53,330 nt of DNA, taken from Atopobium sp. GTDB taxonomy: Bacteria > Actinomycetota > Coriobacteriia > Coriobacteriales > Atopobiaceae. The stretch lies in NCBI GenBank assembly GCA_018376005.1, contig JAHACE010000001.1, forward strand, positions 1-53,330. Direction: 5' to 3'. This document shows, piece by piece, positions 47,143 to 51,966 of the stretch. How positions within the stretch are numbered: the stretch's first letter is position 1; each line of letters opens with the position of its first letter. A model generated the notes under the pieces. That model saw only the letters and a list, made by a program, of their open reading frames with translations. It searched no databases and was not told where the DNA came from. Made by a program: the position numbers and the translations under genes.

Positions 47143-47535
47143 TTACGCACGAAGACGGTAGCCTTCTTTCTCTACGGCAGCTCGGTACGCATCGACATCA
47201 ATTGGATTTTTGCTGAGGATACGTGCCTGACCACCAGCTAGAGTAACCTGCGCCCATGTTCCCTCAATACTATCGAGAGCTCGAGTCACATGATTGACGC
47301 AGTTCTGGCAAGTCATACCACCAATCTCAAATGTTTGAACATAAGGGTAATGAGATTCATCTTTGTCTTCTGGACCATCTGCAGCAGAAACCTGCTCTGT
47401 GTTACAGGTAGTAACGCCTGTTCCCTCATCAGAGCAGCAGCCTTTTTTACCTGCGGCAATTCCGTAAACACGATAAACCGCAAAACCGCAAAGCGCTACA
47501 ACAGCAAGAATAACAATAATATTGATTGGTGACAT
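47143..47535 (-). CDS. Membrane-anchored heavy-metal-associated (HMA) domain protein
   Basis: N-terminal TM helix plus KKGCC; C-terminal GMTCQNC. Confidence 0.85.
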   Translation of the reverse strand: MSPINIIVILAVVALCGFAVYRVYGIAAGKKGCCSDEGTGVTTCNTEQVSAADGPEDKDESHYPYVQTFEIGGMTCQNCVNHVTRALDSIEGTWAQVTLAGGQARILSKNPIDVDAYRAAVEKEGYRLRA

Positions 47536-47645: not shown

Positions 47646-48050
47646 TTAAGCAGAAAGCTTTGCACCAAGGCCGCGAAGAGCCTCAAGAGCATCGTCATCT
47701 GGCTCAAGGTTGCAGATAAAAGTCTCAACAACGTTGACGCCCTCTGCCTCGGCATTCTGCTTCCAAGTCTCCATCCAGTCGCCGGTTCCCCAGTCGTAAG
47801 AACCAAAGAGAGCGGTTGGCTTCTGACCAAGCTTGCCAGCGCAATCGTTGAAGAGCTCCTCAAAATCAGGATCAAGCTCCTCGTCACCCATGGCAGGGCA
47901 ACCAAAAGCAAATGCATCGTACTGATCGCACATATCTGCAGAGAACTCAGAAGACTCAATAGCCTCGGTGTCTGCAGCACTTGCAAGCTCTTTTGCCATT
48001 GCCTCAGTATTGCCCGTCATGGACCAATACACAACTGCTACTTTACTCAT
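47646..48050 (-). CDS. Short-chain flavodoxin
   Basis: YWSMTGNTE, GCPAMGDE, FGSYDWG. Confidence 0.95.
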   Translation of the reverse strand: MSKVAVVYWSMTGNTEAMAKELASAADTEAIESSEFSADMCDQYDAFAFGCPAMGDEELDPDFEELFNDCAGKLGQKPTALFGSYDWGTGDWMETWKQNAEAEGVNVVETFICNLEPDDDALEALRGLGAKLSA

Positions 48051-48134: not shown

Positions 48135-48881
48135 TTATGCAACCTGACATTTCTTGGTATTGCCATACGATGAGAGAATCTGCGCTAAAGATTCCCCTTG
48201 ATAAAAACGATGCTTGCACTGGTCTTCTGCATCTTTAAGTCTTTCGAGACGCAGGCGAGTTTCTTCCGTGTTGTCATAGACTTTCCAAGCACCAGTAAAA
48301 AGCTCAGACTGTCCATTCATAAAGCCCTGAACATCAGTAAGTGGATAGCCCAGTACCAGTCCAATCTCGTGCGGAAACGCGGCTTTCCTTGCGTGAAAAG
48401 CAAAAATTCTTGAACGCATGCTCTTCATCAACGCCTGTACGGACTCAGTGGAATGGCCAAAGGCAGCCAGAAACTCACAGTGCTCTGATTTGGCGAGAAT
48501 ATCCTCAACAAGCTCAGGTCTATAGGCAACAAACGTCACCTTTCCGCCAGAAATAGCAGAGGTAGCAAGAAGCGTTACCCCAAACAGTGAGAGCTCGTGA
48601 GTAGCGTTGCATAGAAATGACCTCAACGTTGGATCAGTGCAGACAAGACTTGCACAAGAGCTACAAGACTTATGAGAAGCAAATGAAAAGAGCGCGGCCG
48701 GCTTAACGTGAGCAATAACACCAGCAGCACAGCGAACAAATGTTGTTGCAAAATCATGACAGAGCTCGGGAGCATACGCTCTCTTACCCTCATTAAAAAC
48801 AGGCTTTTTATCAGCAGAATAGGTATAGGGAGAAGGAACGTCTAGGAGCGATGAATTCTCAAAAGAAGTAAGACAATCCAT
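48135..48881 (-). CDS. DUF3793 family protein
   Basis: CAAGVIAHVKPAAL and FPHEIGLVLGYPLTDVQGF...WKVY motifs; flavodoxin neighbour. Confidence 0.8.
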   Translation of the reverse strand: MDCLTSFENSSLLDVPSPYTYSADKKPVFNEGKRAYAPELCHDFATTFVRCAAGVIAHVKPAALFSFASHKSCSSCASLVCTDPTLRSFLCNATHELSLFGVTLLATSAISGGKVTFVAYRPELVEDILAKSEHCEFLAAFGHSTESVQALMKSMRSRIFAFHARKAAFPHEIGLVLGYPLTDVQGFMNGQSELFTGAWKVYDNTEETRLRLERLKDAEDQCKHRFYQGESLAQILSSYGNTKKCQVA

Positions 48882-48901
48882 ACCGTACTTGCTCCCTTCT
48901 T

Positions 48902-49046
48902 AAAAATGCGCCGTCGACTAAAAGGGAGCCGACGGCGCCTGGATTCCGGACCCTTGGAGAGGGGAAAGGTTCCGGGCTGATAAAGCAATTTTGTTAGAAC
49001 TAGCTCCTGTTATATAAAAACCTTAACAAGTTAGCCTCTTCTAACT
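48902..49046 (-). ncRNA. Candidate structured leader / small RNA with C-rich loops
   Basis: Promoter-like TTGCAT-N16-TACACT (49080-49053), two hairpins with loops CCCCUCUCC and CCCUUUU, terminal U run. Confidence 0.4.
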
Positions 49047-49072
49047 ATTTAAAGTGTAAGCCATAGCTAACT
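49029..49072. promoter_or_regulatory. Tandem TTAG-N6-CTAA palindromes (DtxR/MntR-family-like operators)
   Basis: AGTTAGCCTCTTCTAACT (49029-49046) and TGTAAGCCATAGCTAACT (49055-49072) overlap the promoter. Confidence 0.55.
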
Positions 49073-49122
49073 AAATGCAAGAGAAAACTCAAAATATTTT
49101 TACTTTTTGACAATTCAAGCAG

Positions 49123-49205: not shown

Positions 49206-51374
49206 CTAGGCAGCTTGTCCTTCAGTTAAAAGCATCTTTACCTCAGAAGGAACATTAGGGTTATGAGCTGCAGTGGTAAGCAGTGACCTTGTGTTTGCAA
49301 GCGTTACCATAAGTGTCAGAAGATTGTGCATATATGCAGCAGCACTTACGGTAATAAGACCTGCAACGCCTGCAGCAATGAAAGAGCTGTTCAGCGCAAC
49401 AATCGTACGATAGTCGGCGTGAATCCTCTTCATTACCTGCTGGCCTAAAAGACGCATGATTACCAGCGATTCAAGCGAATCATTCTTAATCGAAATATCC
49501 GCAACTGCGCGAGCAATATCAGTTGCATCAGACAGAGCCAGTGAAACATCAGATACGGCTAGTGCAGGTGAATCGTTAATACCATCGCCTACCATTGCAA
49601 CGGTGTAGCCCTCCTGCTGGAACTTCTTAACATACTCGCACTTATCCTCTGGGAGAATCTGTGCCACATAGTCATCAAGACCAAGCTTCTTAGCAACACT
49701 TGCTGCAACGTTTTCTGAGTCGCCAGTCAACATAACCATACGCTTAACACCAAGAGCACGGAGCTGCGTAATAGTTGCTGCTGCATCTTCCCTTACAGGA
49801 TCGGTAATACAAATTGCTGCAATAAGTTTTGAATCCTCGGACATAAAGATAATGGACGAGGTTGGAGCAATCTGTGCAAGGTCGTCTTGAATTCCCTCGG
49901 GCATTGGGGTCTTCTCGTCATCAAAAATGAAGTGAGCTGAGCCAATGCAGACCTCTTTGTTGTTAACCTTGGTACGAATACCGTGAGCAACAACATACTT
50001 AACCTCTGCGTGGAACTCGTCATTGTGCTTGAGGCCACGTACCTTTGCCTCGTTCACAATTGCTCGAGCCATGCTGTGTGGGAAGTGCTCCTCAATACAT
50101 GCAGCAAGACGCAGAAGCTGGTCCTCGGTGCGACCACAGAAGCTGACAATGCACTCAACATGTGGAACTGCCTTTGTCAGCGTACCGGTCTTATCAAAGA
50201 CGATAAGATCAGCCGCAGCGATCTTCTCGAGGTATTTTCCGCCCTTAACCGTCATGCCAAACTTAGCTGCCTCATCCATTGCGCTACCCACTGCAACAGG
50301 AGTGGAAAGCTTAATGGCGCAGGAATAGTCAACCATAAGAACGGTCATAGCCTTAGTGATGTTTCGGGTAATGCCCCAAATACCAAAGAAGGCGAGGAAG
50401 CTGTAAGGAACCAATGCATCAGAAAGGCGCTCTGCCTTAGACTGTGCGCCAGCCTTAAGTTCAGCAGACTGCTCAACCATATCAACAATATTGTCGATAC
50501 GAGACATTCCTGGAGGAGCAGTGACGCTTACCATAAGGTCACCGTCTTCAAGGGCGGTGCCTGCGTAAACGGTTGAGCCAGGCTCTTTGGTAACAAGGCG
50601 AGACTCACCTGTCATGGCGGCCTCGTTCATCTGGCCAATGCCTTCAACAACTTTGCCGTCAACAGGAAGAACGCCACCAGCGCGCTGGTGCAAAATCATA
50701 CCCTTCTCAACCTCAGAAAGGGCAATCATAACGTCCTTGCCGTCAATACGAGCCCAGACGTTCTCAGAACGAGTGATTAGGCCATCACGAAGTGCAAGAC
50801 GTGCTCGGCTTGCCACGTGGTTCTCCATAGCAGCAGACAGCTCAAGCAAGAACATGACCGTAGATGCATCTGCCCACTCATTTCTTAGAATTGAAGTGGT
50901 GATAGCAGTTGCGTCCAAAACCTCAACGGTCAGCTCTTTCTTAAATAGGCGCTTAACGCCTTCCACGACAAATGGAATGGCGCGGAGAATGACATAGGCA
51001 TAGTTAGCAACTGCAGGTAGTGGCAAAGAACGCATAATCCAGCGGCGTGCGAATGTGGTCACAACCTCCATCTGGAAACGATTGTTCTCAAGAGCCATCT
51101 CAATTGAGCTGCAGAAGTCTTCAAGGCCTGCCTCTTCTTCTCGTGGCAAGTTCAAGACCTCAAAGGCGCCAACAGCCGCAAGTACCTGATCTCTCTTGAG
51201 AGGATCAAACCTTAGCAAGAGAGAACCGTTTGCCATGTGAACTTCAGCGTGACGAACTCCATCAACACGCATCAGCTCATAGGAAATACCACGGGCTTCA
51301 GCATCATCAATATGACCCAGGTCGCATTTTGCACGAATGCGACCTGAGATTTCATTAGTAATTGTGAAGCGCAT
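49206..51374 (-). CDS. Heavy-metal P1B-type ATPase with SCA motif
   Basis: TGES, VDYSCA, DKTGT, GDGINDSPA, C-terminal HN. Confidence 0.93.
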   Translation of the reverse strand: MRFTITNEISGRIRAKCDLGHIDDAEARGISYELMRVDGVRHAEVHMANGSLLLRFDPLKRDQVLAAVGAFEVLNLPREEEAGLEDFCSSIEMALENNRFQMEVVTTFARRWIMRSLPLPAVANYAYVILRAIPFVVEGVKRLFKKELTVEVLDATAITTSILRNEWADASTVMFLLELSAAMENHVASRARLALRDGLITRSENVWARIDGKDVMIALSEVEKGMILHQRAGGVLPVDGKVVEGIGQMNEAAMTGESRLVTKEPGSTVYAGTALEDGDLMVSVTAPPGMSRIDNIVDMVEQSAELKAGAQSKAERLSDALVPYSFLAFFGIWGITRNITKAMTVLMVDYSCAIKLSTPVAVGSAMDEAAKFGMTVKGGKYLEKIAAADLIVFDKTGTLTKAVPHVECIVSFCGRTEDQLLRLAACIEEHFPHSMARAIVNEAKVRGLKHNDEFHAEVKYVVAHGIRTKVNNKEVCIGSAHFIFDDEKTPMPEGIQDDLAQIAPTSSIIFMSEDSKLIAAICITDPVREDAAATITQLRALGVKRMVMLTGDSENVAASVAKKLGLDDYVAQILPEDKCEYVKKFQQEGYTVAMVGDGINDSPALAVSDVSLALSDATDIARAVADISIKNDSLESLVIMRLLGQQVMKRIHADYRTIVALNSSFIAAGVAGLITVSAAAYMHNLLTLMVTLANTRSLLTTAAHNPNVPSEVKMLLTEGQAA

Positions 51375-51377
51375 GAA

Positions 51378-51680
51378 TTATGCCTGTGCGCCCTCTGCGT
51401 CGACCTGCTTGGTAACCTCAGCGCGGATACCCTCCTCGAGCTCAGCAAGGCGAGCGCGAACTGCAGCGTCAATCTTGGACTCACGACGAGCCTCAGCGAC
51501 AACGTCGTTAGCCTCGTCAACGACGTTCTGAGTCTCTGCGGAAACGCGGTCAGTTACGCGAAGACCACATGCAGTTGCCTTGACAGCTGCCTTGTGAAGA
51601 GTGCCGTTAGAAGCAAGACCAGCAACAACGCCAGCAAGTGCAGCGCCACCGGCTGCGAGACACCAATTGTTCAGTTTCAT
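51378..51680 (-). CDS. Small partner protein of the P1B ATPase (DUF1490/DUF6110-like)
   Basis: 100 aa; hydrophobic N-terminus plus amphipathic helix; 3 nt upstream of the ATPase. Confidence 0.7.
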   Translation of the reverse strand: MKLNNWCLAAGGAALAGVVAGLASNGTLHKAAVKATACGLRVTDRVSAETQNVVDEANDVVAEARRESKIDAAVRARLAELEEGIRAEVTKQVDAEGAQA

Positions 51681-51966
51681 AAAAATCCCCCATCTGCTAT
51701 TTGCAAATTAATCGGTTAATGACCTATTGAAGATAAAATTTTTTTACGAAAAAAACAAGTGAAAATCATTACTAATTAGTTATCCTAATAAAACAATTGT
51801 ACACAAGTAATTTCTTACCTGCGAAAACGTTTCCTATGGTTAGCCATGGTATACATATAAATTTTGTGAAGATGCCGCTCTGAGGCGTTACTTAAATTAT
51901 TGATATTTGTTCGTATAGGTTAACAACTAAATGAAAATAACAACTATTCTGTGTCGTTACTATGAA

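Follow-up and report, generated by a model that had tools for sequence, protein, structure and literature searches.

A predicted iron-sparing small RNA with a defined seed upstream of the DUF3793 and flavodoxin genes in Atopobium

The element that precedes the DUF3793 and flavodoxin genes of an Atopobium sp. is, in our judgement with good confidence, a trans-acting iron-sparing small RNA (sRNA) whose seed loop would block the ribosome-binding sites (RBSs) of iron-enzyme mRNAs. Because a conserved folded RNA, an operator box and a loop that matches RBSs occur together, such an RNA likely turns off iron enzymes at low iron. An iron-sparing sRNA had been proposed here in the original prediction, and that reading now has support from covarying stems, from copies that stand alone, from the genes of the box regulon and from seed matches to the RBSs of iron proteins.

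In the proposed mechanism, low iron would cause a DtxR/MntR-family repressor to leave its boxes, and this release would turn on feoAAB and fezAB, for uptake and ferrosome-type functions, together with the sRNA promoter, two sRNA copies being made. Most transcripts would end at hairpin 2 and yield the sRNA of ~145 nt, while some would read through into DUF3793-flavodoxin. The sRNA loop would pair over the Shine-Dalgarno sequences of ferredoxin, PFOR and other iron-protein mRNAs, blocking initiation, and flavodoxin, whose mRNA has no seed site, would escape and substitute for ferredoxin.

The element, its operator and its candidate regulator

The window, meaning the whole 53,330-nt stretch of DNA that was analysed, carries the element on its minus strand, where all the parts named in the original prediction were found in their places (Table 1). 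The 148-nt region folds better than 200 of 200 shuffles (z = -5.25), and a covariance model whose training set included this very copy matches 48901-48994 with E 2.7e-16. Hairpin 1 is identical in 51 of 55 genus-level records, record L461, which holds no hairpin 2, having been dropped from the genus-level counts. Two TTAG-N6-CTAA boxes had been described; box 2 is indeed perfect (49044-49031, minus strand), whereas box 1 carries one mismatch and reads TTAG-N6-CTTA (49070-49057, minus strand). The perfect motif has 10 occurrences in the 1.37-Mb genome. A simple sigma-70 consensus scan calls no promoter at the element, and the promoter is therefore assigned from the similar arrangement of hexamers and boxes in homologs, as judged by eye. 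A small ORF was considered as a candidate and rejected, since 49047-48901 contains no AUG and the aligned copies differ by indels of various lengths.

Table 1. Features of the element and of its neighbours (window coordinates)
Feature	Position	Strand	Basis or remark
Predicted -35 hexamer TTGCAT	49080-49075	-	Sequence; several homologs have similar hexamers in this position (by eye)
Predicted -10 hexamer TACACT	49058-49053	-	Predicted from sequence; 16 nt after TTGCAT
Operator box 1, 18-bp palindrome over spacer and -10 hexamer	49055..49072	.	PWM score 21.7
Operator box 2, at the predicted transcription start	49029..49046	.	PWM score 19.7
Predicted sRNA of ~145 nt, ends putative	48901..49047	-	Fold z; covariance-model match
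Hairpin 1, presenting the seed loop	48946..48975	-	Covarying stem
Seed CCUCUCC, complement of GGAGAGG at iron-protein RBSs	48956..48962	-	Loop predicted unpaired; nearly invariant; target enrichment
Hairpin 2 (48938-48908) and U-tract ATTTTT	48901..48938	-	Intrinsic-terminator-like; second C/U-rich loop
DUF3793 RBS AAGGGAGC	48891..48898	-	Predicted to pair transiently with hairpin 2, solely in this species
DUF3793 gene	48135..48881	-	PF12672, E 6.6e-35
Flavodoxin, iron-free electron carrier	47646..48050	-	RBS without seed match
Small membrane protein with HMA domain	47143..47535	-	PF00403
FezB-like P1B-6 ATPase, upstream neighbour	49206..51374	-	DYSCA and HNxxT motifs in translation
FezA-like small GxxxG membrane protein	51378..51680	-	Translation, motif definitions

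Judged by its gene content, the RNA lies within an iron-related island, with a fezA/fezB-like pair upstream and DUF3793, flavodoxin and HMA protein genes downstream. The DUF3793-flavodoxin arrangement that had been predicted was borne out, the PF12672 gene being followed by the flavodoxin and then by the HMA protein. Only 26 nt separate the terminator from the ATG of DUF3793, with no second box in the gap, and the gene is likely reached by read-through of the terminator. Proteins close to the DUF3793 protein, with 76-100% identity, are assigned to Lancefieldella parvula, Atopobium sp. or Atopobiaceae, and by way of these relatives the genome family f1 was taken as Atopobiaceae. In the literature that was searched, DUF3793 was found only in an unrelated fungal paper. 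On the upstream side, the FezB-like ATPase gene has its own terminator at 49163-49126, and boxes by the FezA-like gene lie at 51778-51795 and 51838-51855. The DYSCA and HNxxT motifs define FezB/P1B-6, and FezA is defined likewise, in passages of one preprint (bioRxiv 10.1101/2020.01.10.902569). The fezA/fezB-like pair with its two boxes (window 49206-51680) is a possible ferrosome gene cluster.

The box is an 18-bp palindrome with the consensus AGTWARC-N4-GYTWACT. It scores at least 11 upstream of 28 of 30 RNA loci, as against 1 of 168 control windows, and the same result is obtained with a matrix trained solely on 53 DUF3793 loci in which no RNA copy had been detected. This genome holds 33 sites that score at least 11, among which box 1 of the element is the second best; they include sites before feoAAB (12.4) and fezAB, and many of the other boxed genes are not annotated. 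The predicted box is thus an operator common to the RNA promoter and to the iron-uptake genes feoAAB/fezAB. This regulon content agrees with the DtxR-family type of control that had been suggested, in which the repressor would bind the box. Further boxes lie at C282:7689, C151:1529, C235:1268, C75:2396 and window 32356; the boxed genes include what we take, from their N-termini, to be a peroxiredoxin, a pyruvate formate-lyase and a methyltransferase, and boxes also precede the genes of a 485-aa protein and an NMT1-type binding protein. The box regulon may therefore reach beyond iron uptake.

The genome has one DtxR/MntR-family gene and one Fur-family gene. The best NCBIfam matches of the DtxR-family protein are MntR models, below their cut-offs, and its relatives in structural databases include manganese sensors as well as iron sensors; for this reason we infer iron as the signal from the regulon and not from the protein. 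In genome G159, a relative of this DtxR-family protein (50% identical over 80 aa) lies directly behind a boxed, seed-bearing RNA (L351), an arrangement that suggests autoregulation. By these sequence criteria, the RNA is probably under a DtxR/MntR-family repressor. That the RNA acts in trans while responding to manganese or another metal, or that the box belongs to the Fur-family protein instead, we regard as unlikely. The MntR models, the presence of a Fur-family gene and the TAG-N6-CTA spacing of the box, which we take to resemble MntR-type operators, speak for such an alternative. It is opposed by the boxes before feoAAB, the ferrosome-type fezAB and the flavodoxin operon, by the iron proteins encoded by the seed-matched genes, and by the G159 boxes that stand in front of the DtxR-family gene itself.

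A covarying RNA family inside and outside DUF3793 leaders

DUF3793 is present in 146 of 301 genomes of the order, and in the 70 DUF3793 loci that were read the same two-hairpin element was seen across several genera. A covariance model built from 13 copies matches 113 of 151 family genomes at E<=0.01 and 101 at E<=1e-7, mostly with one copy each, while a plain DNA search reaches the genus only (32 of 35 genus genomes, none of 24 others). An alignment of 36 copies has 90.7% of its cells paired, compared with 31-54% of cells in slid-partner controls, and shows changes on both sides at 19 of 22 pairs; it was fitted to the covariance model, which favours the pairing figures. On the same model-fitted alignment RNAalifold predicts 16 of these pairs again, with compensatory changes at 14. 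Hairpin 2 shows compensatory changes at 11 of its 12 pairs, with 97.9% of cells paired. Unconserved loops had been named in the original prediction as a sign against it; the loop 1 seed CCUCUCC is nearly invariant while the stems vary, which is the pattern expected of a base-pairing seed.

The Rfam and covariation searches that had been proposed also turned out in favour of a new RNA family: beside the 19 covarying pairs, Rfam 15 (4,227 models, with RyhB, FsrA, 6C and sX13 among its families) gave no gathering-level match in the window and only a tRNA in 12 homolog loci. The best sub-threshold match is sX13 (RF02232), at 25.9 bits where the gathering score is 50. We know of no link between 6C- or sX13-type sRNAs and this box.

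Covariance models overlook diverged copies, and model R1 missed a second boxed copy in this same genome. That copy, on contig C16 (minus strand, ~780-636), follows feoB of feoAAB and has two boxes, a loop ACCCUCUCCC with the same seed, and a terminator. The second copy is found in 5 of 5 genus genomes, and in a complete genome a C16-type copy lies ~5.5 kb from the first. Outside family f1, model R2 gives matches of only 26-38 bits, mostly GC-rich hairpins without a box; none of seven inspected matches has one, and 12 further ones are boxless as well. Two of the inspected loci, from family f3 (L153, L154), nevertheless have two hairpins with seed-like CCCUCUCCCU loops and C-rich terminator loops, with no box in the DNA examined. 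Other boxless copies stand directly past the stop codon of an enolase-like gene, as judged by eye, and before DUF3793 (L088, L101, L124), and L148 holds two copies, each just past a flavodoxin-like gene. These boxless copies are possibly 3'-UTR-derived forms.

A merely conserved terminator, or chance hairpins, is hardly credible as the whole explanation. Hairpin 2 does have the form of a standard terminator and the weak out-of-family matches are mostly boxless GC-rich hairpins, but covariation, the box and stand-alone copies largely refute this reading, as do the fold score, the invariance of loop 1 and the possession of a boxed promoter by the RNA itself.

The linkage to DUF3793 was examined in 42 copies, 16 of which are leaders of that gene; three are set apart from DUF3793 by another boxed promoter, and 23 lack any DUF3793 within 1.3 kb, so that the RNA stands apart from a DUF3793 leader in 26 of 42. 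These counts bear on an attenuator or translational cis switch in the DUF3793-flavodoxin leader, in which hairpin 2 would alternate with a fold that hides the RBS, a function that we hold to be quite unlikely. The perfect match between the terminator and the RBS had been correctly noticed: GCTCCCTT (48929-48922) is the exact complement of AAGGGAGC (48898-48891) on the minus strand. Such an 8-nt match is rare, since AAGGGAGC precedes only 2 of 1,239 genes; it is intact in 53 of 55 genus-level records, and for transcripts that end 10-15 nt past the start codon the alternative fold reaches P 0.55-0.62. The 16 leaders among the 42 copies also fit a cis role. However, P falls to 0 when the transcript of this copy extends 20 nt into the coding sequence, each of the 15 other linked copies gives 0, the remaining 26 of 42 copies are not DUF3793 leaders, and loop 1, the best-conserved part, has no cis partner. 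Since the alternative fold occurs in only 1 of 16 linked copies, a cis switch built on the mutually exclusive folds proposed earlier is not the conserved function. By the logic of the sequence, moreover, the RBS partner cannot act as an antiterminator, because the RBS is 3' of the U-tract. Weaker U-tracts in leader copies were unsupported (mean T count 5.1 vs 5.5). In this species, according to the modelled folds, pairing between the RBS and hairpin 2 may damp translation of DUF3793.

Seed matches at ribosome-binding sites and the same seed on other scaffolds

Support for the predicted action of the sRNA in trans comes also from the RBSs that its seed would recognise. Among 1,359 genes from home-made gene calls, 1,239 had usable upstream sequence, and GGAGAGG occurs at -26 to -2 in 19 of them. 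Ten of these 19 encode iron proteins; of the 153 further proteins scanned on these contigs and in the window, 10 are iron proteins by a count made by hand (Fisher p=2.1e-6). Labelled by means of Pfam or NCBIfam, the ten are PFOR, YgfK, hydroxylamine reductase, Fe-ADH, GldA, a 4Fe-4S oxidoreductase, an NfnA-like protein, RlmD, ferredoxin and a split EFR1 ferredoxin; the other nine genes encode non-iron proteins. We take RlmD to carry an Fe-S cluster, and GldA, of the Fe-ADH family, may presumably use zinc. The EFR1 ferredoxin (L159:17271-17859) and the Fe-S oxidoreductase (L162:5122-7993), on contigs C170 and C31, each appear as two ORFs in this assembly, either because the genes are truly split or through an error of assembly.

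Among 23 genes chosen solely for their Cys motifs, a blind test placed GGAGAGG first of 9,964 7-mers (4/23, nominal p=2.9e-4), a rank that is not significant once all 7-mers are corrected for. Across the whole ranking by loop-1 binding energy, 15 strict Fe-S-motif genes showed no shift (Mann-Whitney p=0.30), and no enrichment of Fe-S genes was seen for loop 2 (p 0.81) or for the 5' single-stranded stretch (p 0.73). Of the C-rich anti-Shine-Dalgarno loops described earlier, it is loop 1 whose seed complement is enriched at iron-protein RBSs. Predicted loop-1 duplexes range from -14 to -18 kcal/mol for the ten iron leaders and from -6 to -12 kcal/mol for Pta, flavodoxin, DUF3793, FezA and FeoA, figures that show only the size of the gap because the targets had been picked by the seed.

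RBSs were also surveyed across 30 chosen genomes, in which the counts are patterns and not tests because kin are not independent. PFOR has GGAGAGG in 13 of 14 RNA-positive genomes, as against 2 of 14 for the non-iron control Pta, whose RBS varies (its most shared 6-mer occurs in 10 of 29). The core GAGAGG is present at ferredoxin in 11 of 11 cases and at none of 54 distinct flavodoxin RBSs. Other sites are poorly kept: GGAGAGG stands at 1 of 13 Fe-ADH sites and GAGAGG at 3 of 6 Hcp sites. PFOR retains GGAGAGG in 9 of the 12 genomes for which the model gave no strong copy. The counts leave out G217 for Pta and G336 for Hcp, which are partial matches, four PFOR loci that are distant or partial, and the Fe-ADH locus of G217, which is partial. 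From these RBS patterns, loop 1 looks like the targeting seed.

The persistence of the PFOR site where no RNA was found (9/12) also fits the alternative that the RNA is real but GGAGAGG is simply an inherited strong Shine-Dalgarno variant, the loop serving, for example, to bind a protein or to stabilise targets. Loops that resemble an anti-Shine-Dalgarno sequence match many RBSs by default, which likewise favours this explanation. We nevertheless consider it very unlikely, as the enrichment covers unrelated families of iron proteins, the control Pta RBS is free to vary, flavodoxin lacks the core in 54 of 54 cases, and the same seed is kept on unrelated scaffolds in other families.

A box-plus-seed pattern matches 46 of 301 genomes. 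In family f4, boxed RNAs with the same seed (L298, 520-760 on the plus strand, L299, L300, L302 and L303) consist of a boxed promoter followed by 2-4 tandem units, each made of a single-stranded CCUCCCUCUCC and a hairpin. Boxed RNAs with CUCCUCUC or CCCUCUCCCC seeds on still other scaffolds occur in families f3 (L351, L355 and L357, all in G159) and f5 (L046 and L049). The existence of boxed same-seed RNAs in f3, f4 and f5 partly explains why the PFOR site is present in genomes without a strong copy. In G073 (family f13), the box-plus-seed pattern and box surveys found no boxed same-seed RNA, and five model-negative f1 genomes gave weak or no model matches only; genomes without a strong copy are therefore no proper negative control. 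A seed-plus-terminator pattern returned unrelated matches only in five genomes, and a tandem-seed pattern returned none in 251 genomes of the class, a result that is uninformative because it also missed its own positive, G058. On the minus strand of L348 (G073), ~80 nt past a box, there is a perfect inverted repeat of ~25 bp that starts with CTCTCC.

A broader reading, which we put forward tentatively and doubt slightly more than we trust, is that of an order-wide iron barcode, in which the GGAGAGG/GAGAGG variant of the Shine-Dalgarno sequence would mark iron-protein genes, and box-controlled sRNAs with one shared seed on unrelated scaffolds would read it and execute a switch from ferredoxin to flavodoxin. 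Its readers would be the loop seed of Atopobiaceae, the 2-3 boxed loop-seed RNAs of an f3 genome and the f4 arrays of 2-4 tandem units. If this were true, a single RNA class would carry out the ferredoxin-to-flavodoxin switch in these bacteria.

Comparison with known iron-sparing RNAs

Anaerobes of the class Coriobacteriia are common in the mouth, gut and rumen, and iron-sparing sRNAs have arisen separately in several phyla. The element combines a seed of 7 defined nucleotides with a predicted operator and with predicted targets that centre on PFOR and ferredoxin, flavodoxin being both exempt and co-induced in the prediction; with these features specified, the ferredoxin-to-flavodoxin switch becomes directly testable in these bacteria. 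The multi-seed arrays of the sister family f4 represent an unusual sRNA design. A literature search, with subscription papers mostly, and supplementary catalogues of candidate RNAs, outside its scope, found no iron-sparing sRNA described for Coriobacteriia, and MrsI was the one case of a DtxR-family-controlled sRNA that it found. Table 1 of a 2022 review gives no sRNA for iron-sensing DtxR (PMC9294342). By sequence comparison, the element is unrelated to the known iron-sparing sRNAs held in Rfam.

IsrR of Staphylococcus, according to sections of PMC9410917, is an iron-repressed RNA that represses the translation of Fe-S enzyme mRNAs and, like the element, combines stem-loops, single-stranded C-rich regions and an intrinsic terminator. 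It differs in being controlled by Fur, in having three C-rich regions and in being conserved among staphylococci, whereas in the element a single defined seed dominates, the palindromic box is likely of the DtxR/MntR type, and Rfam gives no match. In the same sections, the C-rich motif of FsrA from Bacillus subtilis binds the Shine-Dalgarno sequences of iron-protein mRNAs, much as is predicted here; FsrA is controlled by Fur and requires the FbpABC chaperones (PMC9410917), and the element has no match to it in Rfam.

The 6C RNA shares with the element two hairpins with C-rich loops, as outlined in a portion of PMC8628891, but the element has no 6C match at E<=5 and its loop reads CCUCUCC instead of a run of six C. 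IroR of Bacteroides thetaiotaomicron is likewise an sRNA of a gut bacterium that acts in iron homeostasis; it belongs to another phylum, on the account given in part of bioRxiv 10.1101/2025.09.08.672848, and is set beside the element by description only.

The closest design is that of MrsI from mycobacteria, which, in the relevant parts of PMC6016810 and PMC8628891, is an actinobacterial iron-sparing RNA of ~100 nt with a promoter site for IdeR, a DtxR-family protein, and with a 6-nt seed in a hairpin loop that is followed by a terminator. MrsI is reported from Mycobacteriaceae and Nocardiaceae, with targets that include bfrA, hypF and fprA (PMC6016810, PMC8628891). The element, which is compared with it by description only, belongs to another class of the phylum and has predicted PFOR and ferredoxin targets.
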